Shown here piece by piece: positions 5,358-24,819 of a stretch of 64,000 nt of DNA. The stretch is taken from sequence record MN655998.1; one strand, 5' to 3'. How positions within the stretch are numbered: position 1 is the stretch's first letter; each line of letters begins with the position of its first letter. The translations under genes and the position numbers were made by a program. The notes below the pieces were generated by a model. The model worked only from the letters and a program-made list of their open reading frames with translations, made no database searches and was not told the origin of the DNA. The DNA is from Escherichia phage E26.

Positions 5358-6128
5358 ATGAATATTATCCGAATAAAACTACCGGAAGGTGTGCAGAGAT
5401 TTAAACCATTCACGGTAAAAGATTATAGAGATTTCCTTCTGGTGTCAACTGAAATTAAGATGAATCCAGAAGAAGAACAAACGATTCTTGATGAGCTATT
5501 AGAAGAAATATATCCAGAAGTAGATCCTGCATTTCGTGAATATATTTTCCTGAATGTCTTTACTAGTTCAATTGGTAAAACTAAGATACCGCTTTGTTTT
5601 ACTTGCCCGACTTGCAACAAAGAAAGAAAAATGTTGCTTAACTTACAGATTGAAGCACTAAAACCAATCGTTCTGGAGGCCGCAGGGCTTAAAATAACTT
5701 TCCGGTATGTGAAACCATCAACCGACTATGCAAAAACGTTTCTAGATGCGATAGAGCGTGTATCTGATGGTATTAATGATTATCTATGGACTGAATTACC
5801 GGAAGAAGTTAGAGAACAGGTTATCGATTCAATCTCATTTGCTGAATTTGAAGAAGTTGTTAAGCAGATGCACACGATCAAGATCGAACAAAAGATATCT
5901 TGTTGTGAAAGTCATGATCTAAAATACATAGGTCTTCTTCCATTATTCAAATTGTTGTTGAATCCAGATGAGTTATTCATCTTTTATCGAATAAACCATC
6001 TATTGGCAAAATCAAATTATTCTATCAGTGATCTTATGGATATGTTACCGATTGAGAGAAACATTGCATTGACACTGGTCGAGAAAGACGTAAAAGAGGC
6101 AAACAATGCAAAGAACGGGGTTTCCTAA
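5358..6128 (+). CDS. 51: baseplate hub assembly protein gp51
   Basis: 256 aa, synteny and size. Confidence 0.75.
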   Translation: MNIIRIKLPEGVQRFKPFTVKDYRDFLLVSTEIKMNPEEEQTILDELLEEIYPEVDPAFREYIFLNVFTSSIGKTKIPLCFTCPTCNKERKMLLNLQIEALKPIVLEAAGLKITFRYVKPSTDYAKTFLDAIERVSDGINDYLWTELPEEVREQVIDSISFAEFEEVVKQMHTIKIEQKISCCESHDLKYIGLLPLFKLLLNPDELFIFYRINHLLAKSNYSISDLMDMLPIERNIALTLVEKDVKEANNAKNGVS

Positions 6129-7215
6129 TGTCTCAATAAAACTTTATCAGGATTATGAGGCGTTTCTAAATCATCGCTTTATAGAGTTGGGTGCTACCTT
6201 TGTTACAATGACTCTGCGTGATTCGATCCGTGGGGTCAATGAAGGATTGTTGCAATTCTATGATAATAAAGCGATGCATACAAAATTAAACGGACGAGAG
6301 ATTATTCAGATTTCGCTATCCACTGCCAACACAGATGAAGTGTTCAACCGAATCTATGGGATCTCTCATAGTAATGTAACTATTGACCAAAAATCTGACA
6401 ACATTTTAACATTCCAGTTAAAGAGCTATCACGAAACACTAAACCTTAAATTTTCTCGCGCATTGACAAATAACGCTGTTAATAACGTAACCAGTATGAT
6501 TGATGCCATCTATAAGGAAGTTCCTTTATGGAAACCTACTATAAAGGGCGATAACGTTGTTATTCCTCGTTGCCCGTGGGTTAGTACCATAAATGACTAT
6601 ATGGATTTTGTTAGGGCATACGGGCAAAGCGTAGAAACCGAGTCTTTCGTGTATTGCTGGGAAGATTTTGATGGTATAACGATCGCTGGACACGATACAA
6701 TATTAAAAAATGAGCCAATACCAGCTATAATCTGTGAGCCTAGACTCATGGGGCAATTTATTGATATGTCGCCTAATCTGATGGTTTTTAATTTCGAGTG
6801 GCAGACTAAGAGCAATGCTAAAGTTAAAAATTCATTTAGCAATGTGACATACACAACTATTGATTTTGTTACTAAGCAGTATAATAAAATTGTTGTTGGT
6901 AATGGGGATAATATTGCACACTTTGCTCATGGTGGCGCTTATGGTAATTTAACTTATAAGAATGCGTTTTTGGAAGGTTCTAAACTTGCCATAATAGAAC
7001 AATATGATTCATATGCTACCGCCGTGTGTCACGGTAATTTTTCGTTGCGCCCCGGTATGGTTATTCGATTCTTTGATGAGAAACAACAAGCACGCAATGA
7101 TTTTATTGTTGACGAAGTTGTGCATGAAATTAGCCGAGAGCAATCATTAACTCACCTGTATATGATCGGTAACAGCGAAGAATTACAGGAAGTAAAATTT
7201 GAAGGTAAGATATAA
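6106..7215 (+). CDS. 27: baseplate hub subunit gp27
   Basis: 369 aa, overlaps gp51 end and gp28 start as in T4. Confidence 0.8.
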   Translation: MQRTGFPNVSIKLYQDYEAFLNHRFIELGATFVTMTLRDSIRGVNEGLLQFYDNKAMHTKLNGREIIQISLSTANTDEVFNRIYGISHSNVTIDQKSDNILTFQLKSYHETLNLKFSRALTNNAVNNVTSMIDAIYKEVPLWKPTIKGDNVVIPRCPWVSTINDYMDFVRAYGQSVETESFVYCWEDFDGITIAGHDTILKNEPIPAIICEPRLMGQFIDMSPNLMVFNFEWQTKSNAKVKNSFSNVTYTTIDFVTKQYNKIVVGNGDNIAHFAHGGAYGNLTYKNAFLEGSKLAIIEQYDSYATAVCHGNFSLRPGMVIRFFDEKQQARNDFIVDEVVHEISREQSLTHLYMIGNSEELQEVKFEGKI

Positions 7216-15511: not shown

Positions 15512-15540
15512 ATTATAGGGGATCACCGATCCCCTGTCAA
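15512..15540 (-). promoter_or_regulatory. PeSL early promoter (TTGACA - GGGGATCGGTGATCCCC - TATAAT)
   Basis: Perfect sigma70 consensus hexamers, 17-nt palindromic spacer. Confidence 0.65.
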
Positions 15541-16068
15541 CAACTTTTTTGAATTATTTTTTAATTGCTCATCTTGTAATAGAGCAATAACATGCTGGCG
15601 ATGTTCTTCCGATTGAGGCACACCGAAAAAGTTTGTTTTGTAGAAATATTCTAATCGATCTTCTCGTGTGCTCTCTTCCATCATGATCGCGGGTAGTCCG
15701 AGATTTCGGAAACGTCGCTTTTCTGCTGGCGTAAAATCACTGTAATACAACATAGAATCATCATTACCAGCAATGCTAAACTCATCTTTCATAAAGGAGA
15801 ATATTGCGTTTAAACGCTGTTTACCGTCCACGATTTCGATCTCATAGCGAGAGCCATCATCAATCTTAGCCATTGCGATAGCACCAACCGGAAAATCATT
15901 AATCAGGTTTTCGATAAACATACGTTTGTTTTCGGTGTCCCATACCAAAGGACGCTGATAATCTGGGTTCATGTTGATATAGCCATCTTCTAACCACGCC
16001 TCATAAACAGAGATGACAAAGTTTTTAGTATTGGTATAGTAACGGCGTTTAGGCGTTAAACGGTTCAT
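15523..16068 (-). CDS. DUF262 (ParB/GmrSD N-terminal-like) domain protein
   Basis: YQRPLVWD ... FPVG ... IVDGKQRLNAI match the DUF262 signature (DGQQR box); start set at MNRLTPK with AGGAGA RBS. Confidence 0.55.
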   Translation of the reverse strand: MNRLTPKRRYYTNTKNFVISVYEAWLEDGYINMNPDYQRPLVWDTENKRMFIENLINDFPVGAIAMAKIDDGSRYEIEIVDGKQRLNAIFSFMKDEFSIAGNDDSMLYYSDFTPAEKRRFRNLGLPAIMMEESTREDRLEYFYKTNFFGVPQSEEHRQHVIALLQDEQLKNNSKKLLTGDR

Positions 16069-16069
16069 G

Positions 16070-16399
16070 TTATAGTCTCCTGAATGGATCATCACGTAAA
16101 TCAATATCTTTTAAGAACTCATCCCATGAATGGCGGATATTGTTCTTAATTCTCCAGATAAGCGCAGGGATTGAACGCTCTCCCATCTGGAAGTAAGGAT
16201 CATATGATCCATATGCCCAATATGCTACTACAATTCCACAATCAGCGCAATAATATTCTATTTCACTTGCTGGCGACCAAAGTCCATCAATATGATCGGT
16301 GATCCTGCTTTCGATGTTATGGCTATGGCAATCAGGGCAACGGATGCAATGACCTTGTTTATCGTAATTTGACGTTAGCGAATACTTAAACAATCTCAT
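16070..16399 (-). CDS. Cys-rich putative zinc-finger protein
   Basis: 109 aa; CIRCPDC ... CADCG pairs; translationally coupled to flanking genes. Confidence 0.5.
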   Translation of the reverse strand: MRLFKYSLTSNYDKQGHCIRCPDCHSHNIESRITDHIDGLWSPASEIEYYCADCGIVVAYWAYGSYDPYFQMGERSIPALIWRIKNNIRHSWDEFLKDIDLRDDPFRRL

Positions 16400-17115
16400 T
16401 ATAGATCCTTATTTGCTTCAAATACTGCCTTTGCGAATCCTCGCGGGGTAAGTGACCTTATAGTCTTTGTTTTCGTTCCTTTCCCGCCTAGCTTAGAATG
16501 CTGTTTACTGTACCCTTTATTAATCTGCAACGGTTTCTTTTCTGGCATTATAAAGCCTTGTCCGGTCCATAAGCAAGTCCTTTTCGGGTACATATCACGG
16601 GCGGCAATATACTCAGGAAAAGTAGGATGTTTATCATCTTCCGGCAAATAACCGCCATATTCCCACGGATGGAACATATAATCAGGCTTACGCCACATGC
16701 TAGAGATAACGCTTACAGGATTCTCTATCATGTAGGGAACTCCTAGCCATTCACCCAAATAAGCGGTTATTTTAGCTGCCCGTACATCATGAACTTGAAT
16801 CAATGGTCCTTGCTCTCGTTTCTTTCGTTCAAAGTGTGCAGCGCCACTAACAGCTAAATTGGTGCACGGTGGGAATGCAAATATAATATCCGGTTTCCCC
16901 CATTCAAGGTCCATTGCTCTTTCTAGCCAGTTCAAATCAATCCATGTGTTTACATATGTAATGTTTGGATGTTCAAATCGGGTATTATATTTTTTGTATG
17001 TACCGTGGTCGCCATCGTCAGCATTAAAGCAGATCACCTTATGACCTGCTTTAGCCCATTCTAACCCCATTATCCCCGATCCGTCAAAGTTGCAGAATAT
17101 TAATTTTTGTTTCAC
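16399..17115 (-). CDS. compact C5-cytosine-methyltransferase-like protein (motifs I, IV, VI)
   Basis: FDGSGIMG (FxGxG), FPPCTNLAVSG (PC motif), ENPV (ENV motif) in canonical order; only 238 aa, no obvious TRD. Confidence 0.4.
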   Translation of the reverse strand: MKQKLIFCNFDGSGIMGLEWAKAGHKVICFNADDGDHGTYKKYNTRFEHPNITYVNTWIDLNWLERAMDLEWGKPDIIFAFPPCTNLAVSGAAHFERKKREQGPLIQVHDVRAAKITAYLGEWLGVPYMIENPVSVISSMWRKPDYMFHPWEYGGYLPEDDKHPTFPEYIAARDMYPKRTCLWTGQGFIMPEKKPLQINKGYSKQHSKLGGKGTKTKTIRSLTPRGFAKAVFEANKDL

Positions 17116-17446: not shown

Positions 17447-17614
17447 TTATTTGTTAATTTCCGGTGCGTTGCTTGGATAGTAACCTTCTTTAACTCCGAG
17501 GTATTTCGCAACCATCCCTACAATCTTCTGTGCTACTACAATGTCAAATTTCAGATAATCTTCACCGTAGGTTTCAATGATATATGCTTCACATGCTGCT
17601 TTAGTCTCGAACAT
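17447..17614 (-). CDS. hypothetical 55-aa protein, paralog copy 1 (MFETKAACEAY...YYPSNAPEINK)
   Basis: Hand-translated; near-identical paralog at 20716..20883. Confidence 0.45.
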   Translation of the reverse strand: MFETKAACEAYIIETYGEDYLKFDIVVAQKIVGMVAKYLGVKEGYYPSNAPEINK

Positions 17615-18412: not shown

Positions 18413-18432
18413 AGCCGACGCTAAGGTCGGCT
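18413..18432 (-). terminator. intrinsic terminator AGCCGACG-ctaa-GGTCGGCT + T-run (minus)
   Basis: Stem plus TTTTTT on minus strand downstream of 18440 gene. Confidence 0.55.
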
Positions 18433-18439
18433 AATAAAA

Positions 18440-18748
18440 TCATTTAGACAAATAATCATTCTGTGCAATCCGGTCAGCATGTTCCGGCGTTACGTCAATT
18501 GCAATCACTTTAACGCGTGCTTTCTTGCGACCTGGGTTTTCTCGTAGCCAGTGCGTGTGACCGTACAAATTTTTATACTTTGATGCTTCTTCGAAGGTAC
18601 GGATCGGACCTGGGTAATCAGCGTAAAGGATCTCTAGATCTTCGGTGATGTAAAAATATACATCGTAATTGCTGTTCTCTAGCTTAAGCAGAGACTTTCG
18701 GAACATTGGGAGATTTTCGCGGGTAAATTCAAAGATATTATCTTTCAT
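18440..18748 (-). CDS. HxHW-family paralog 1 (start adjusted to MKDNIFEF)
   Basis: YFYITEDL ... GHTHWL ... VIAIDVTPEHAD; RBS GAGGAT. Confidence 0.55.
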   Translation of the reverse strand: MKDNIFEFTRENLPMFRKSLLKLENSNYDVYFYITEDLEILYADYPGPIRTFEEASKYKNLYGHTHWLRENPGRKKARVKVIAIDVTPEHADRIAQNDYLSK

Positions 18749-18776
18749 AGTATTATCCTCAATAGTTGGATGAAAA

Positions 18777-18796
18777 GGGGGGCTTAACGCCCCCAT
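18777..18796 (-). terminator. hairpin GGGGGGC-ttaa-CGCCCCC + T-run (minus)
   Basis: Duplicate of hairpin at 14994..15010. Confidence 0.45.
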
Positions 18797-18799
18797 ATA

Positions 18800-19087
18800 T
18801 TAAAACAGTCCTTCCTGTACACCGTAATAGAGTTCGTCGCTGATAATTTCATTAATGCGACGGTGTGCATATTCCTGATTTGCGAAGTTGTCAGCAAGTT
18901 CTACTTTAGTTTCTCCGTCATGAGTCCATTTAGTGATAACTTTACCATCTGCAAATTTGAAGTTGAACTCTTTAGCTACCGCATCGCGTACCAGACGTGC
19001 AAACTTATTGTTGCGGATTGCATTGTCGGTTTCGTGTGCAGCGTGAGCGAATTTGTTAACTTTCAGAGTGATAGTAATGTATGCCAT
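18800..19087 (-). CDS. hypothetical protein (95 aa), KEFN-motif paralog a
   Basis: RDAVAKEFNFKFADG shared with 22100..22411 product (RKALAKEFNTKIHSVTG). Confidence 0.5.
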   Translation of the reverse strand: MAYITITLKVNKFAHAAHETDNAIRNNKFARLVRDAVAKEFNFKFADGKVITKWTHDGETKVELADNFANQEYAHRRINEIISDELYYGVQEGLF

Positions 19088-19133
19088 AATTTGATTCTCC
19101 TAGTTAGAAAGTGTATCTCGTTTCGATGGGTGT

Positions 19134-19162
19134 ATTATGCTATACACCCGACCTTATGTCAA
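19134..19162 (-). promoter_or_regulatory. PeSL early promoter (TTGACA ... CATAAT, palindrome GGGTGTAT/ATACACCC)
   Basis: Same palindrome as 15265 element. Confidence 0.6.
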
Positions 19163-19168
19163 CACTTT

Positions 19169-19447
19169 TTATAAAATAATTTTTTGATATTTTTCTATGA
19201 TGTTCGTGTAAGTCACATCAACCGCTAGCACCGTTGCTTCGAATCCACCGTTTAGCCAATGGCTATGGTCATGATCGTGAAAGAAACCAAGACCAGTACG
19301 AAGACCTTCTTTATATTCTGCGCGTACATTTAGATCATCATCGATAAACAGATAAAACCATGAATTTTTACTAGGATTGATGATACAACCTTTCAGATTA
19401 GGGAGAATATCACGACTAAGAATAAACTTATCACCTACTTTGAACAT
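19169..19447 (-). CDS. HxHW-family paralog 2 (start at MFKVGDKF)
   Basis: FYLFIDDDL ... HDHSHWL ... VLAVDV. Confidence 0.55.
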   Translation of the reverse strand: MFKVGDKFILSRDILPNLKGCIINPSKNSWFYLFIDDDLNVRAEYKEGLRTGLGFFHDHDHSHWLNGGFEATVLAVDVTYTNIIEKYQKIIL

Positions 19448-19461
19448 AATATTTTCCTCAC

Positions 19462-19770
19462 TTATAAAGTTTGACCGTTGTTTTTCGCGTAATGCTGAAT
19501 GCGTGCTTGATCTGCTTCCGCTGGTGATAGATTCCATGCAACCACTACAACTTCTGACGCATCGTCATCCGTTTTTGATACCCAATGATTATGATTCATA
19601 CAATTGTTTGCTATCGCGTGAGCAAATGATTTCATCACTGGAGATGTATAATCATAGTAACGGATTTTCAGATTTTCATCAACATACAAGTAGATCGTAT
19701 AAGGTTTATATTCAGTAACCAGTAACAGACAGTTACGCAATTCTGGGAAAATCTTTTTAGTTAATTTCAT
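19462..19770 (-). CDS. HxHW-family paralog 3 (start at MKLTKKIF)
   Basis: IYLYVDENL ... NHNHWV ... VVVAWNLSPAEAD. Confidence 0.5.
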   Translation of the reverse strand: MKLTKKIFPELRNCLLLVTEYKPYTIYLYVDENLKIRYYDYTSPVMKSFAHAIANNCMNHNHWVSKTDDDASEVVVVAWNLSPAEADQARIQHYAKNNGQTL

Positions 19771-19771
19771 T

Positions 19772-19981
19772 TTATAATCCTCGGTCGCGGCTATAGTACA
19801 CGGTACGCCATACAATTTCATGTTTCGTGTCGCTCCAGCACACGATCTCATTTACTCTTAAATCTTTGTTATCAACAAAAGATGAACATTGTGACGTTTC
19901 TTTCATCATTTTATCTGCTGTTTTCTCATCAAATACAGCACAGATTTCTTTATACACTCGATAATCTTTAAACTTGCTCAT
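19772..19981 (-). CDS. hypothetical protein, MSKFKDY tandem paralog a
   Basis: MSKFKDYRVYKE...FDEKTADKMMKETSQCSSF; paralog immediately upstream. Confidence 0.5.
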   Translation of the reverse strand: MSKFKDYRVYKEICAVFDEKTADKMMKETSQCSSFVDNKDLRVNEIVCWSDTKHEIVWRTVYYSRDRGL

Positions 19982-19983
19982 AA

Positions 19984-20193
19984 TTAACACCAATCAAGAG
20001 TTTTTGAAAACACATCTATCCATTGTTGAGTATATGCGGTTTCTTTCCATGATACAATACCGGTAGAATAATGGTTTTTGTTTCCAGAAAAGGACGGGCA
20101 TTTTGATGCATCTTCCATCATCTTTTCGGCGAACTCTGGTTCGTATACTCGCAAGATCTGTTGATATGCTTTGTAGTCTTTAAATTTGCTCAT
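19984..20193 (-). CDS. hypothetical protein, MSKFKDY tandem paralog b
   Basis: MSKFKDYKAYQQ...FAEKMMEDASKCPSF. Confidence 0.5.
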   Translation of the reverse strand: MSKFKDYKAYQQILRVYEPEFAEKMMEDASKCPSFSGNKNHYSTGIVSWKETAYTQQWIDVFSKTLDWC

Positions 20194-20458
20194 AATCGTT
20201 AACTACCTTATCAGCTTCTTTTATTGTTTTTACATCAACTGCGATAACCCGTAAAGGTTCGTCGTGGTTCCACCAATGATCGTGAATATCAGCTTGTGAT
20301 TTATCACCAAAGGAATCACGAATATCATTTTTACATTTATAGCTAATGTGACCGTCATAGTCAACATAAAGGTAATTATCGAAAATCGGCGTTTTTAAGA
20401 TCATACCGAAAAATCTTTCTTTGTGTGTCTTATCCAGCGTTGCAGTAATTCGCATCAT
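20180..20458 (-). CDS. HxHW-family paralog 4
   Basis: NYLYVDYDGHISY ... IHDHWW ... VIAVDVKTIKEAD. Confidence 0.55.
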   Translation of the reverse strand: MMRITATLDKTHKERFFGMILKTPIFDNYLYVDYDGHISYKCKNDIRDSFGDKSQADIHDHWWNHDEPLRVIAVDVKTIKEADKVVNDYEQI

Positions 20459-20471
20459 AATATATTCCTCT

Positions 20472-20651
20472 TAGAAAGGGATGGTCATTTCTTGAGCTTG
20501 TACATTCTCGTTAGGATTAAACTTCATCCAACCGATATTGTCTACCAGCATATGTACATTTTTATCATACCCTACGTGAGTAGTCAACACTAAATGTGCT
20601 TTACCTTCAACGATGATTTCCATGTACTTCTGAACTTCGATAGCTTTCATT
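20472..20651 (-). CDS. hypothetical small protein (59 aa)
   Basis: Hand-translated MKAIEVQKYMEIIVEGKAHLV...; RBS GGAGAAT. Confidence 0.4.
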
Positions 20652-20678
20652 TTGATTCTCCGTTTGTTGTCTTGATGG

Positions 20679-20712
20679 GAGTATCTTACTACTCCCTTTA
20701 ATCATTGTCAAC
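20679..20712 (-). promoter_or_regulatory. PeSL early promoter (TTGACA, stem GGGAGTA/TACTCCC with -10 TAAGAT in loop)
   Basis: Same stem variant recurs at 31271, 58091, 58856. Confidence 0.5.
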
Positions 20713-20715
20713 TAT

Positions 20716-20883
20716 TATTTGTTAATTTCCGGTGCGTTGCTTGGATAGTAACCTTCTTTAACACCCAGATATTTTGCAACCATTCCGGTGATCTTCTGTG
20801 CTACTACGATATCGAATTTCAGGTAGTCTTCACCGTGGGTTGCTACAATGTATGCTTCGCATTCTGCTTTAGTCTGGAACATT
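20716..20883 (-). CDS. hypothetical 55-aa protein, paralog copy 2 (MFQTKAECEAY...YYPSNAPEINK)
   Basis: Hand-translated; ~85% aa identity to 17447..17614 product. Confidence 0.45.
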
Positions 20884-20917
20884 TTTGATTCTCCTATATC
20901 TCGTTGGTATGTGTGTA

Positions 20918-20947
20918 TTATAGGGGATCTCCCGATCCCCTGTCAAC
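20918..20947 (-). promoter_or_regulatory. PeSL early promoter (TTGACA - GGGGATCGGGAGATCCCC - TATAAT)
   Basis: Duplicate of 17648 element. Confidence 0.6.
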
Positions 20948-20954
20948 AACTTTT

Positions 20955-21263
20955 TTATTCTTCATCTTCATTTTTATCTTTATATGCGTACTTCATAAAT
21001 TTGTCTGCTACTTTGTCCGCGTTTTCAGGTTCTACGTCTGACGCTAGGACAACAGCTAGTTCGGTTTTGTCGTTTCCATCATACCAATGATTATGAGTGT
21101 CGTTTTCTTTGATATAAAACGAATCATTTGGAGTTGTGCGACAATATACGTCTAAATTCCCATCGATATAAAAGATCCAATCCGAATACAAAATGATTGT
21201 TTTAGCCAGATTTTTATTGTCTCTTACAAAAGGTTCCGCGACAAATAGCTTAGTTTGTTCCAT
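20955..21263 (-). CDS. HxHW-family paralog 5 (start at MEQTKLF)
   Basis: IFYIDGNLDVY ... THNHWY ... LAVVLASDVEPENAD. Confidence 0.55.
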   Translation of the reverse strand: MEQTKLFVAEPFVRDNKNLAKTIILYSDWIFYIDGNLDVYCRTTPNDSFYIKENDTHNHWYDGNDKTELAVVLASDVEPENADKVADKFMKYAYKDKNEDEE

Positions 21264-21279
21264 AGTAATTTCCTCAAAA

Positions 21280-21471
21280 TTATACAGCTTCGTAAACTTC
21301 CCAATGTCCAACACCAGCACGCTTAACGAAAAGGTTTTCTTTGATGTTATTCATAAACGTCTGGATGGATTTAATGCGGTTGGAAGGTTTCCAGTCTTCG
21401 TTAGCATTGCGGCGATACATTATAACATTACCAGATCGCTTATATTCAGCAACCATTTTAAGACCACACAT
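21280..21471 (-). CDS. hypothetical protein (63 aa)
   Basis: ORF track; RBS GAGGAT 8 nt upstream. Confidence 0.4.
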   Translation of the reverse strand: MCGLKMVAEYKRSGNVIMYRRNANEDWKPSNRIKSIQTFMNNIKENLFVKRAGVGHWEVYEAV

Positions 21472-21527
21472 AATAATATCCTCAATTTGTGGGAGAGTAT
21501 TACCCTCCCAATTATTGTTATACTACA

Positions 21528-21830
21528 TTACGCAAAATGGCGTGTCAATGCTTCTTTTGCTGTTCCGCTAAGATTCTCGATCTCTCCTGGCATAACATCA
21601 ACCGCCAGAACTTCTACAACATCCTCTGATCCTAACCAGTGAGTATGACCTTTGTAGAACTTGATATCCCATTTAACGCTATCGCTAGCCCACCACACAT
21701 CACCGTCGATAAAGTTGATGTAAAGCACACTACGACACATTGAATTAATTACTTTCAATACTGCGCCTTTCATCTCTTCCACGGTATGGTCTTCCATTTT
21801 GAAGACCTCACCTACCTGAACTTTTGCCAT
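21528..21830 (-). CDS. HxHW-family paralog 6
   Basis: LYINFIDGDVWW ... GHTHWL ... VLAVDVMPGE. Confidence 0.55.
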   Translation of the reverse strand: MAKVQVGEVFKMEDHTVEEMKGAVLKVINSMCRSVLYINFIDGDVWWASDSVKWDIKFYKGHTHWLGSEDVVEVLAVDVMPGEIENLSGTAKEALTRHFA

Positions 21831-21847: not shown

Positions 21848-22027
21848 TTACATAACAATCACGCCAGCCGTTGAAAGTTGATGTTTCAACTGAGCATTTT
21901 CTGCTACCGTCAAATCAATGATTTCTTGTGACGCTGCAATCATATAGCCATTGGTGATATTGTTTTGCATCAGTTCAATGGTTTCTTCGTTGTAGCGGAT
22001 TTTAGCGATGATTTCGTTGAAGTTCAT
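21848..22027 (-). CDS. hypothetical small protein (59 aa)
   Basis: Hand-translated MNFNEIIAKIRYNEETIELMQ...; RBS AGGAGAAT. Confidence 0.4.
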   Translation of the reverse strand: MNFNEIIAKIRYNEETIELMQNNITNGYMIAASQEIIDLTVAENAQLKHQLSTAGVIVM

Positions 22028-22061: not shown

Positions 22062-22091
22062 ATTATAGGGGAGTTTAGCCTCCCCTGTCAA
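22062..22091 (-). promoter_or_regulatory. PeSL early promoter (TTGACA - GGGGAGGCTAAACTCCCC - TATAAT)
   Basis: Hexamers plus palindromic spacer. Confidence 0.6.
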
Positions 22092-22099
22092 CAACTTTT

Positions 22100-22411
22100 T
22101 TAAAGTTTTTCCATGATAACGGTCATAATTACATCTTCTGCGCGAGCGGTCAGATTATCAGCGTCAGCATGTGGGCGGTTGGTTGTTACAGAGATAACAC
22201 CGTTGCGCACTGGTTTGATATTGATATCAAGATGATCCGCGAAACGTTCGCCAGTTACAGAATGAATTTTGGTGTTAAATTCTTTTGCCAGTGCCTTGCG
22301 AACTTCACGAATCAGGATAGCGTTTTTCAGTTGGTTCTCCGCGCTCATGGTCTTCTGGGTGTTCATGGTTCCGTCGAAGTCAATCATTGGCAGCGTTACG
22401 ATGTATTTCAT
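22100..22411 (-). CDS. hypothetical protein (103 aa), KEFN-motif paralog b
   Basis: Shares AKEFN block with 18800..19087 product. Confidence 0.5.
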   Translation of the reverse strand: MKYIVTLPMIDFDGTMNTQKTMSAENQLKNAILIREVRKALAKEFNTKIHSVTGERFADHLDINIKPVRNGVISVTTNRPHADADNLTARAEDVIMTVIMEKL

Positions 22412-22850: not shown

Positions 22851-23324
22851 TTACTCCTTATTTTCGCGCTCGTACTTTTCGAAATAAAATTCTACTGGCT
22901 GGTCATTAATTGACAGCAAGCCAAAGCGTTTAGCCGCTCGCAATCCCATATTGCGCTGAATGTACTTCTGGAAGTTCTCGCGTATACACTTACGCCAGTA
23001 TTCTAAGCCCATACAGCTTTTATAAAGATTGCATTGCACACACGCCGGATTCATGTTATCAAGTATATCATGTTCCGGTTTATGCATTCCTACAACCTTA
23101 TACTTCCACGATCCATCATCATTACGGGCAATTCGTCCATTTTCATCATAGACTACCTTTGAGCGTCGCAATACTGGTTTGATGTGGTCTGCGTGCCAGC
23201 GATCCCCTAGTTCCTCGCCACAATAGGCACAACGTCCACCATATTTCATTTTCAGGATCTGGCGTTGCTCTTTCTTTGACAATTTTTTAGGTTTAGGGGC
23301 TTTTGCCCCTTCATTATCACACAT
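22851..23324 (-). CDS. HNH endonuclease
   Basis: CAYCGEEL ... WHADHIKP ... N ... CVQCN: HNH motif with two CxxC pairs; directly downstream of ligase gene. Confidence 0.6.
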   Translation of the reverse strand: MCDNEGAKAPKPKKLSKKEQRQILKMKYGGRCAYCGEELGDRWHADHIKPVLRRSKVVYDENGRIARNDDGSWKYKVVGMHKPEHDILDNMNPACVQCNLYKSCMGLEYWRKCIRENFQKYIQRNMGLRAAKRFGLLSINDQPVEFYFEKYERENKE

Positions 23325-24819
23325 CGAATACCTCTTTTACTGTATTTGCAGTGGTCTTGTCGTAGCGAATACGTTTGATGATTGGGAGAAATAAAGAGAA
23401 CTCCGGTTCATCTTCTTTACGTGATTTGCTGCGGATATACCCGTTGCATGTCATCTCAATGACTTTTCCAATCAGGTTATGACGATCAGCCCATAACATT
23501 TCTCGGTCGAGTTCATTTCTACGATCGAACGGAATTACACGTTCAATACCATCATCACCTTTTTCGGTTGTAGTGTCGGTTAATCCAGATCCGGTGTTAG
23601 TCATCATTCGTCCGCACGCACTACGGACAGTAAAACCGCCTACCTTATTGGGGTCTTTACTATGCGGATATACATCAACAATTTCCGCGTCGAAGTCAAT
23701 CACTTCTTTAAATTTAACCTGATCTTTACTACGGCGATCTTCAAATACACCATGTAAATTTTTAAGGATAATACCTTCTAAGCCCATGTTTACATAGCGA
23801 TGATATACTTCGCGAGCTTCGTCTATATTGTTAACTACAGTGTTTTCGATTATCTGAACACGAGGATCGTTAAGTTCTTCAACAATCTGTTTTAGTTCTT
23901 CGAATCGATCTTTATATTGCTTCGTTGCTTTCTCGTTTCCGTAATACACATCACGGTCGATAACATCCCAGACAGTGTAAACAATACATTGGGCTTCTTC
24001 TTTTGGAATAGTTCCTTTCAGTGATTTGTTGAGGATACCATTTCCGGTCTGACGATCTGCAACAACGGATTCTTTTACTGCTTCCGCTACTGGAGTTAAT
24101 GGCATTTCCTCTTCTTCAAATATCCATGACAGAGTACCATCATAAACGCTCTCAACGAAGTTCTGCGCTGGTGTTTGTGAAAGGGTAGGCATATATACCA
24201 ATTCGCCATCTAGAACAATTCCACGGCCTCGTAGACGCTCTAAAACCGCAAACAAATCATCAAGCCCTTGATAGGTATTACCTGAGCGGGTATAGATTGC
24301 TAATGTTTCCCCGTCAATATCAGCCATACCACGAGCGCCATCGCTTTTAAGTTGTGCATACGCCGGATATTTGATATTGGCAATAGTCTTATCAGAACAT
24401 GACGATGCAAGGTGGCACGGTTGCTGAGGAATCAGTTTCTTCCATACCTTGTTTGCAGTGGTAGCGGAACAGCCGCATTCCAGATCACGATTCAGGACCA
24501 TCATCGCAACTTTAGCATCATCCTCTGACAAGCAAGTCAGAGTATCGGTAACTAGCTGTAATGCTGCATTACCAGTTACTTGACGCGTGGCAAGTTTATT
24601 TTTAAAGACCTGTAATGCACCGGATAAAGACAATACAGACGAATAGCGAGATGGTTTATCGTATTTCTTTACGCCAAACGTAACCTGTTTGCAATATGCC
24701 AGATAAAAGCATTCTTTCAGCGTTTCATTGCTCGCGGATTCTTTCAGGATCTTTTCTTTCAGCGATGTTTTGTCGGTTGCTGCAAGCTGATTAATGATAT
24801 TAAGAATTGACATTTTCAC
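23317..24819 (-). CDS. 30: ATP-dependent DNA ligase gp30
   Basis: 500 aa; adenylation KxDG motif AQLKSDGAR; size and synteny with T4 gp30. Confidence 0.85.
   Translation of the reverse strand: MKMSILNIINQLAATDKTSLKEKILKESASNETLKECFYLAYCKQVTFGVKKYDKPSRYSSVLSLSGALQVFKNKLATRQVTGNAALQLVTDTLTCLSEDDAKVAMMVLNRDLECGCSATTANKVWKKLIPQQPCHLASSCSDKTIANIKYPAYAQLKSDGARGMADIDGETLAIYTRSGNTYQGLDDLFAVLERLRGRGIVLDGELVYMPTLSQTPAQNFVESVYDGTLSWIFEEEEMPLTPVAEAVKESVVADRQTGNGILNKSLKGTIPKEEAQCIVYTVWDVIDRDVYYGNEKATKQYKDRFEELKQIVEELNDPRVQIIENTVVNNIDEAREVYHRYVNMGLEGIILKNLHGVFEDRRSKDQVKFKEVIDFDAEIVDVYPHSKDPNKVGGFTVRSACGRMMTNTGSGLTDTTTEKGDDGIERVIPFDRRNELDREMLWADRHNLIGKVIEMTCNGYIRSKSRKEDEPEFSLFLPIIKRIRYDKTTANTVKEVFDV

Follow-up and report, generated by a model that had tools for sequence, protein, structure and literature searches.

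Phages of the genus Krischvirus are frequent in coliphage collections and in phage-therapy cocktails (phi1 was isolated for therapy), and their hyperplastic regions are supposed to be reservoirs of host-range and counter-defence genes. Tandem 'gene accordion' or host-range multigene families are familiar from other settings, such as the amplification of poxvirus K3L and of the tifA region of T4. We describe here six small genes, m1 to m6, in a 64,000-nucleotide stretch of Escherichia phage E26 (MN655998.1; 'the window' below means this whole stretch), which can be recognized as a single family of old paralogs. The closest described system is that of the PeSL-associated orphan open reading frames (ORFans) reported from this hyperplastic region in phages of the same group, RB49, phi1 and JSE (Arbiol et al. 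2010, PMC2839356; Comeau et al. 2014, PMC4122927). PeSL cassettes in the RB49/phi1 region have strong promoter and terminator activity and mediate gene shuffling, involving ORF192, ORFs 205/206 and ORFs 210/211 (PMC2839356). The features in common are sigma-70 promoters with G/C stem-loops, small genes confined to the lineage, and a gene content that varies between close relatives; moreover, the RB49 ORFs just named flank the family genes. However, the ORFs figure in those papers as orphans without mutual relationship, whereas the six genes considered here form one family, which in addition is fixed in order in 12 of 14 genomes and whose members are not individually bounded by PeSLs. The likeness to gene-accordion families is that a small viral accessory gene has given rise to tandem paralogs, which lie in a plastic region and over long distances evolve faster than their neighbors; the difference is that the duplications here are ancient (23-29% identity) and that each copy is under purifying selection.

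The genes were known already as hypothetical proteins in the databases, as were the regulatory cassettes of the region; what is new is their recognition as one family. Literature searches on RB49 paralogs, on Krischvirus anti-defence and on the HxHW motif returned nothing on these genes, and RB49 ORFs 197, 199, 200, 203 and 208 are not mentioned in the PeSL paper (PMC2839356). The finding is accordingly that of a lineage-restricted orphan gene family of a T4-type hyperplastic region, with a six- to sevenfold old paralogy and an unassigned fold in addition.

An initial annotation, made from the sequence alone, had proposed a six-member paralogous family of early proteins. The six genes are present at the coordinates given, each on the minus strand, and leave-one-out profile hidden Markov models (HMMs) bear out a true family of small proteins, which lies in an early-promoter region. 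We ran the leave-one-out HMMs, and phmmer, against the 779 six-frame open reading frames (ORFs) of the window: a profile built from any five members finds the omitted sixth (E values from 1.7e-6 to 1.2e-13; Table 1), and the top unrelated ORF has an E value of at least 0.04. Between pairs, the six proteins align over their full length with 23-29% identity and share an invariant M1, H-x-H-W, V and A; m1 and m3 are the nearest paralogs (phmmer E about 1e-11 to 1e-13), and the weakest pairwise comparison is that of m3 with m4 (E about 0.4). PHROGs distributes the six proteins over five families that have no assigned function, with cross-hits among them (Table 1). By profile comparison, then, the six ORFs are true paralogs, and sequence and profile searches of the 64 kilobase (kb) window reveal no seventh copy. 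The members are soluble, acidic-to-neutral proteins of about 90-100 amino acids (isoelectric points of 4.5-6.9, with m5 at 4.5, and net charges of 0 to -10).

Other paralogs lie among the neighboring small ORFs (Table 1). Two 55-amino-acid ORFs, o55a and o55b, are near-identical (phmmer E 6e-34), and their DNA is 87% identical over 172 nucleotides, extending into the neighboring PeSL cassette; in appearance this is a PeSL-mediated duplication of a cassette, and a recent one, unlike the ancient duplications of the family. The adjacent genes o73 and o69 form a second pair (E 4e-16) and o95 and o103 a third (E 3e-4), and neither of these two pairs has a Pfam match.

Over the 6 kb around the array the window is 94-96% identical to approximately 58 Escherichia and Shigella phages of the genus Krischvirus (for example, Delraymugoa, KFS-EC, PHB13 and RB49), and we assign it on this DNA identity to the genome of a Krischvirus, an RB49-like, T4-type member of the Straboviridae. 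In the window and in 13 relatives the family genes sit between alt and a Dcm-like methyltransferase on one side and an HNH endonuclease and DNA ligase gp30 on the other. The order of members is the same in all 13 of these Krischvirus loci, 11 of which hold six members, so that with the window counted all six are retained in 12 of 14 genomes. The two departures are JSE, in which an m3-like gene of 111 amino acids takes the place of m2, and an IMG/VR locus (L005, UViG_3300045988_033703) in which, at 5889-6351, a natural deletion fuses the middle of m2, just past HSHW, to the middle of o83, with the loss of o95, m1, o89, o93, o55a and the carboxyl-terminus of m2. In the records of JSE and kvi the frame of m1 is interrupted, possibly through sequencing errors. 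An extra 88-amino-acid gene, which is not in the window, is found directly before m6 in JSE (gp215; L003 1801-2064) and in G2248 (L012 1666-1932). Profile-profile comparison (hhalign, probability 94.6%, E 7e-8) assigns it to a seventh subfamily, a divergent one, in which GNGHLI replaces HxHW, so that the second His alone is retained and the Trp is replaced by Leu.

We evaluated the wider distribution of the family with two large searches. The six-member profile, used in a word-indexed search over 5.8e9 proteins, returned 88 proteins, each of them a 55-100% identical ortholog of one member and located, where long contigs are present, on contigs of 150-176 kb. With a profile of 29 sequences, an exhaustive hmmsearch across 1.84e9 cluster representatives returned 20 proteins at E <= 1e-3, the new matches being proteins of 84-111 amino acids and a two-domain fusion, P0089; 19 of the 20 are small family proteins, the exception being P0101 (532 amino acids, repetitive, E 6.8e-4), and all contigs traced from these matches are phage-like. 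The phage records that contain the family number 56, all of them Krischvirus-type, and a locus search with m4 alone gave two IMG/VR loci. Neither of the two large searches returned a homolog from beyond the Krischvirus-like/T4-like phage lineage.

Two loci from more distant phages bear on the age of the family. The first (L016, 20 kb, from an uncultured T4-like phage) matches Krischvirus DNA over 2-3% of its length, encodes a ligase 72% identical to that of the window, and has two family members at the same ligase-alt locus. The second (L014, 2.1 kb, Logan SRR8048117) carries five family domains in four adjacent genes, namely an m6-like gene, the m2-like/m5-like fusion P0089 (203 amino acids, L014 823-1434), an m4-like gene and an m3-like gene. 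It also has counterparts of the window's leader ORFs: a 62-amino-acid homolog of o59b (67% identical) precedes the m6-like gene, and the o59a homolog likewise precedes family members. Because each of the subfamilies m6, m5, m4, m3 and m2 is recognizable in these far more divergent phages, we place their origin before the split of the phages concerned and consider that they have been kept apart since. Across lineages the members are 31-47% identical; o59a/b, compared on the same contig, reach 58-67%, and the ligase on L016 reaches 72%. By this measure the family evolves fast over long distances, faster than its neighbors. P0088 is a chimera. The L016 locus also has homologs of o69, o95, o89, o93 and o83, in reshuffled order.

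The initial annotation had read the strong divergence among paralogs as a sign of diversifying selection, and comparison of orthologs does not agree with this. We estimated the ratio of nonsynonymous to synonymous substitution rates (dN/dS, or omega) by the Nei-Gojobori method on 12-14 genomes, gene-wide and in 15-codon windows, a crude procedure that ignores the recombination evident from the synonymous rates (dS) of m1 and m5. All six members have values of 0.09-0.28 (Table 1), indicating that these are real, constrained functional proteins under purifying selection; there is no gene-wide signal of diversification, and selection at individual sites is possible. In the 15-codon windows omega is below 1 everywhere but in one low-count m6 window (omega 1.65), centered on residue 32, a hypervariable position (C, W, F, L or M, depending on the allele) within an otherwise conserved strand region, which accounts for this window. 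Identity among strains is highest for m2 (98-100%) and lowest for m1 (64-94%, dS 0.35) and for m5, the most variable member (68-97%, dS 0.64). Because dS is high as well in m1 and m5, their divergence points to old alleles swapped by recombination, and not to rapid adaptive change. Allelic variation is clustered at the amino-terminus, in the loops on both sides of HxHW and in the carboxyl-terminal tail, and m6 alleles have an insertion of 6-10 amino acids in the loop preceding HxHW.

AlphaFold2 gave confident models for m1 (29-sequence alignment; predicted local distance difference test [pLDDT] 84.3, predicted template modeling score [pTM] 0.80) and for m2 (35 sequences; pLDDT 88.0, pTM 0.83), with a common order of elements: a strand, a short helix, three strands, a long loop, a short helix beginning at HxHW, a strand (VLAVDV) and a carboxyl-terminal helix. 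As modeled, the structure appears to be unlike anything in the PDB. In Foldseek searches of BFVD the significant matches are family members alone, with weak matches to two uncharacterized phage proteins. The structural neighbors that recur, all of them weak, are Tis1 (6ox6_B), Cif, YopQ and AcrIIA7 (8kbi_A), joined for the m2 model only by MazF/CcdB/Kid and Tad2 (9eib_A); Tis1, AcrIIA7 and Tad2 are small phage or bacterial inhibitors. No consistent family emerged when the six proteins and 35 members were scanned against Pfam, NCBIfam, PADLOC and PHROGs, a sequence-profile search of the PDB gave only PhtD (E 2.2), and the library, PDB-profile and fold searches contained no enzyme-family signal. 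The view that the family cannot be assigned to a known fold thus holds, there being no significant outside match in the profile, PDB and Foldseek searches. Nor did we find sequence or fold homology to a characterized member of the known anti-defence proteins (Acr, Tad, Acb and others) or defence-system proteins. Two further candidates were rejected: homologs in the 30-alt region of T4 (hmmsearch of the T4 locus, E >= 0.12) and Pfam T4_Y03C, hinted at by a single member (E 0.1).

Every gene between 15.5 and 24.8 kb of the window is on the minus strand. In the direction of transcription, gp30 and the HNH endonuclease are followed by about 20 small ORFs, by the Dcm-like methyltransferase and, further on, by alt; because the T4 ligase-alt interval contains alt.1 alone, the region is lineage-specific and hyperplastic. 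Adjoining the methyltransferase gene is an ORF of 193 amino acids that matches Pfam GmrSD_N (DUF262; E 3e-20), a stand-alone amino-terminal domain of a type IV restriction enzyme on a phage, and between the two lies a gene for a 109-amino-acid zinc-ribbon-like protein.

The sigma-70 promoter and stem-loop sites of the window match the PeSLs of the same RB49/phi1 region (Arbiol et al. 2010, PMC2839356). Eight sites on the minus strand agree with the consensus at 11-12 of its 12 positions; in many of them a G/C stem-loop lies between the hexamers or next to them, and together the sites make up two direct-repeat families. It had been proposed that each member has its own promoter or ribosome-binding site. 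The second half of this proposal stands, each member having a GAGG(A/T) Shine-Dalgarno sequence 5-8 nucleotides ahead of its ATG (in m1, GAGGA at 7 nucleotides), but an individual promoter is wrong for all of them: no member lies directly behind a promoter or has a contiguous PeSL cassette immediately ahead of it. The PeSLs drive whole operons, and the members are genes two to six of four small ones, o59b-m6 (promoter at 22091), o63-m5 (weak promoter at 21548), o59a-m4-o69-o73-m3-m2 (weak promoter at 20711; gaps within the unit of -14 to +14 nucleotides) and o95-m1 (promoter at 19162). The last of these has a hairpin between its two genes and a terminator at its end; with no recognizable promoter between this hairpin and m1, the hairpin may be an attenuator of m1 expression. 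Because the promoters are of the PeSL sigma-70 type and the late-promoter motif TATAAATA does not occur on the coding strand, the six genes are probably expressed early.

Table 1. Positions in the window, strand, dN/dS and properties of the six family members and of other features of the region
Feature	Position	Strand	dN/dS	Description
m1	18440..18748	minus	0.28	102 amino acids; RB49 ORF197 ortholog; last gene of o95-m1 unit; phrog_9345; leave-one-out E 1.2e-13
m2	19169..19447	minus	0.09	92 amino acids; RB49 ORF199 ortholog; phrog_17255; leave-one-out E 6.7e-9
m3	19462..19770	minus	0.16	102 amino acids; RB49 ORF200 ortholog; phrog_9345; leave-one-out E 1.3e-12
m4	20180..20458	minus	0.16	92 amino acids; RB49 ORF203 ortholog; phrog_15972; leave-one-out E 6.2e-7
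m5	20955..21263	minus	0.17	102 amino acids, acidic tail; RB49 ORF206 ortholog; phrog_15965; leave-one-out E 4.5e-9
m6	21528..21830	minus	0.13	100 amino acids; RB49 ORF208 ortholog; phrog_16486; leave-one-out E 1.7e-6
DNA ligase gp30	23317-24819	minus	0.04	First in transcription order
HNH endonuclease	22851-23324	minus	0.04	After ligase
Dcm-like methyltransferase	16399-17115	minus		After the small ORFs
Neighboring small ORFs			0.00-0.35	
Promoter, PeSL-type early	22062..22091	minus		TTGACA-18-TATAAT, 12/12; drives o59b then m6
Promoter-like site, weaker	21520..21548	minus		10/12, consensus match only; within 3' end of m6, ahead of o63 and m5
Promoter-like site	20683..20711	minus		10/12; ahead of six-gene unit o59a-m4-o69-o73-m3-m2
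Promoter, PeSL-type early	19134..19162	minus		11/12; drives o95 then m1; repeat family D2
Hairpin, G5C/GC5, with T-run	18778..18794	minus		6 G-C pairs; between o95 and m1, about 30 nucleotides before m1 ATG
Hairpin, intrinsic-terminator-like	18413..18432	minus		Directly 3' of m1; annotated terminator in phages G2248 and Makalu_001
o59b	21848..22027	minus		59-amino-acid leader ORF ahead of m6
o59a	20471..20650	minus		59-amino-acid leader ORF ahead of m4
GmrSD_N ORF	15523-16104	minus		193 amino acids
Zinc-ribbon-like protein	16070-16399			109 amino acids
o55a/b	17447-17614 and 20715-20882	minus		55-amino-acid ORFs
o73/o69	19772-19981 / 19984-20193	minus		Paralog pair
o95/o103	18800-19087 / 22100-22411	minus		Paralog pair

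The data support an origin of the family by tandem duplication before Krischvirus parted from related uncultured T4-like phages, a subsequent reshuffling of members with neighboring ORFans through PeSL-mediated recombination, and the maintenance of each paralog lineage by purifying selection even though single members can be lost. From its context, the host-interaction or counter-defence role suggested in the initial annotation is plausible. As to function, our tentative preference, which we hold to be possible rather than probable, is that the products are non-catalytic early binders or inhibitors of host macromolecules, acting in host takeover or counter-defence. In such a scheme a common compact alpha/beta scaffold would present a patch, F...HxHW, which is its sole conserved polar feature; the two flanking loops, variable in length and sequence, would set the specificity; and each paralog would recognize a different partner, perhaps as a dimer, with which the tandem fusion P0089 is compatible. 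Several observations weigh against binding or inhibition of this kind. A metal-binding, ligand-binding or catalytic site, and not a protein interface, could be what the Trp, the strictly conserved His and the nearly conserved His-x-His indicate; positive selection at the level of whole genes, as might be looked for in an arms-race inhibitor, is not seen; m2 is 98-100% conserved among strains; and the early timing rests on the promoter type and on the RB49/phi1 literature. A more specific version, in which an unrecognized fold has been expanded into seven subfamilies of early inhibitors, each tuned by its loops to another host defence or takeover target, we regard as rather doubtful.

The motifs themselves bear on the proposal of a metal site. 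Those noted in the initial annotation are largely confirmed: HxHW is kept in all six members, and the YLYID-like and VLAVDV-like strands are positionally conserved, but the strands have exceptions (VVAWNL in m3, YITE in m1 and YINF in m6) and their Asp is not invariant. In a set of 35 diverse members three residues never vary, namely one Phe, the second His and the Trp. The first His, approximately 90% conserved, gives way to Ser in P0086 and P0087 and to Ser or Asn in certain orthologs, and P0093 lacks it. At the Asp of 'YxYxD', m1 has T and m6 has N; the Asp of 'AVDV' is substituted in m3 (WNL), P0080 (EGI) and several of the m5 alleles (SGV). With the Asp variable, the first His Ser or Asn in some members and a seventh subfamily that keeps the second His only, the metal site of His-x-His plus Asp that had been suggested is not supported, although a two-His site completed across a dimer is possible. 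The known metal-site families that were considered are each rejected, on the context of the motif, on size and on fold: JAMM/MPN metalloproteases, whose E...HxHx7Sx2D motif and MPN fold are not found; HIT and histidine-triad proteins, including pneumococcal Pht, whose H-phi-H-phi-H-phi-phi (or HxxHxH) motif and HIT fold are not found; and the metallo-beta-lactamase fold (for example, anti-defence nucleases of the Apyc1 type), whose HxHxDH motif and alpha-beta-beta-alpha sandwich of at least about 200 amino acids are likewise not found.

A looser form of this idea is that the members are small metal or ligand binders in which HxHW coordinates Zn or Ni or binds a nucleotide, maybe across a dimer interface; each protein would then serve either as a hydrolase of minimal size or as a small-molecule sponge (for example, of an immune signaling nucleotide). 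We consider it unlikely. It would account for the conservation of the two His and the Trp over 35 members, a His-rich stretch in m2 (HDHDHSHW) is consistent with it, as are sub-threshold matches of His-triad type (Pfam Strep_his_triad, E 0.12; the PDB match to PhtD), and in P0089, with its two fused domains, a composite site could form. However, two His by themselves make no site and the candidate Asp ligands vary; the first His is lost in P0086, P0087 and P0093, and the JSE gp215-type subfamily has one His and a Leu for the Trp; no significant match in sequence or fold was obtained to JAMM/MPN, HIT, metallo-beta-lactamase, Pht or sponge families; and HxHW lies in a lower-confidence part of the models (block-mean pLDDT of about 70-86).

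That the members are instead regulators of the phage's own program, for example modulating transcription, translation or replication by binding RNA polymerase, the ribosome or nucleic acid, is in our judgment improbable too. The setting would suit such a role, the genes being in an early operon near alt (an RNA polymerase ADP-ribosyltransferase), the Dcm methylase and the ligase, and the retention of all six in 12 of 14 Krischvirus genomes, with m2 near-invariant, is what a fixed internal partner would show; among the metagenomic orthologs, P0074 bears the depositor's label 'KOW2-KOW3 of Spt5', a reading that would call for a KOW motif or an SH3-like beta-barrel. Against these points, the isoelectric points and net charges given above are unlike those of nucleic-acid binders, single members can be lost, and the family is absent from T4, including its 30-alt region. 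Least credible of all is that these are passenger ORFans of PeSL shuffling, which recombination or mini-circles have duplicated and moved and which have hardly any function, if any: the locus does lie in a region with demonstrated PeSL-mediated insertion, deletion and mini-circles (PMC2839356), with the further pairs o55a/b, o69/o73 and o95/o103 nearby and with losses and chimeras (including P0088), but every member has a dN/dS of 0.09-0.28, subfamilies are retained between phages whose ligases are 72% identical, start codons and Shine-Dalgarno sites are conserved, the predicted folds are confident, and members are not individually flanked by PeSLs.

The reduction of six genes in 3.4 kb, spread over five PHROGs, to one selectively maintained family provides a defined, small experimental target. 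Should the members prove not to be inhibitors, this would be an ordinary orphan family. Should they inhibit different host systems, they would clearly exemplify a counter-defence strategy of phages that is based on the expansion of paralogs, and an inhibitor array of seven subfamilies, if true, would be the phage counterpart of the multigene host-range families of poxviruses.

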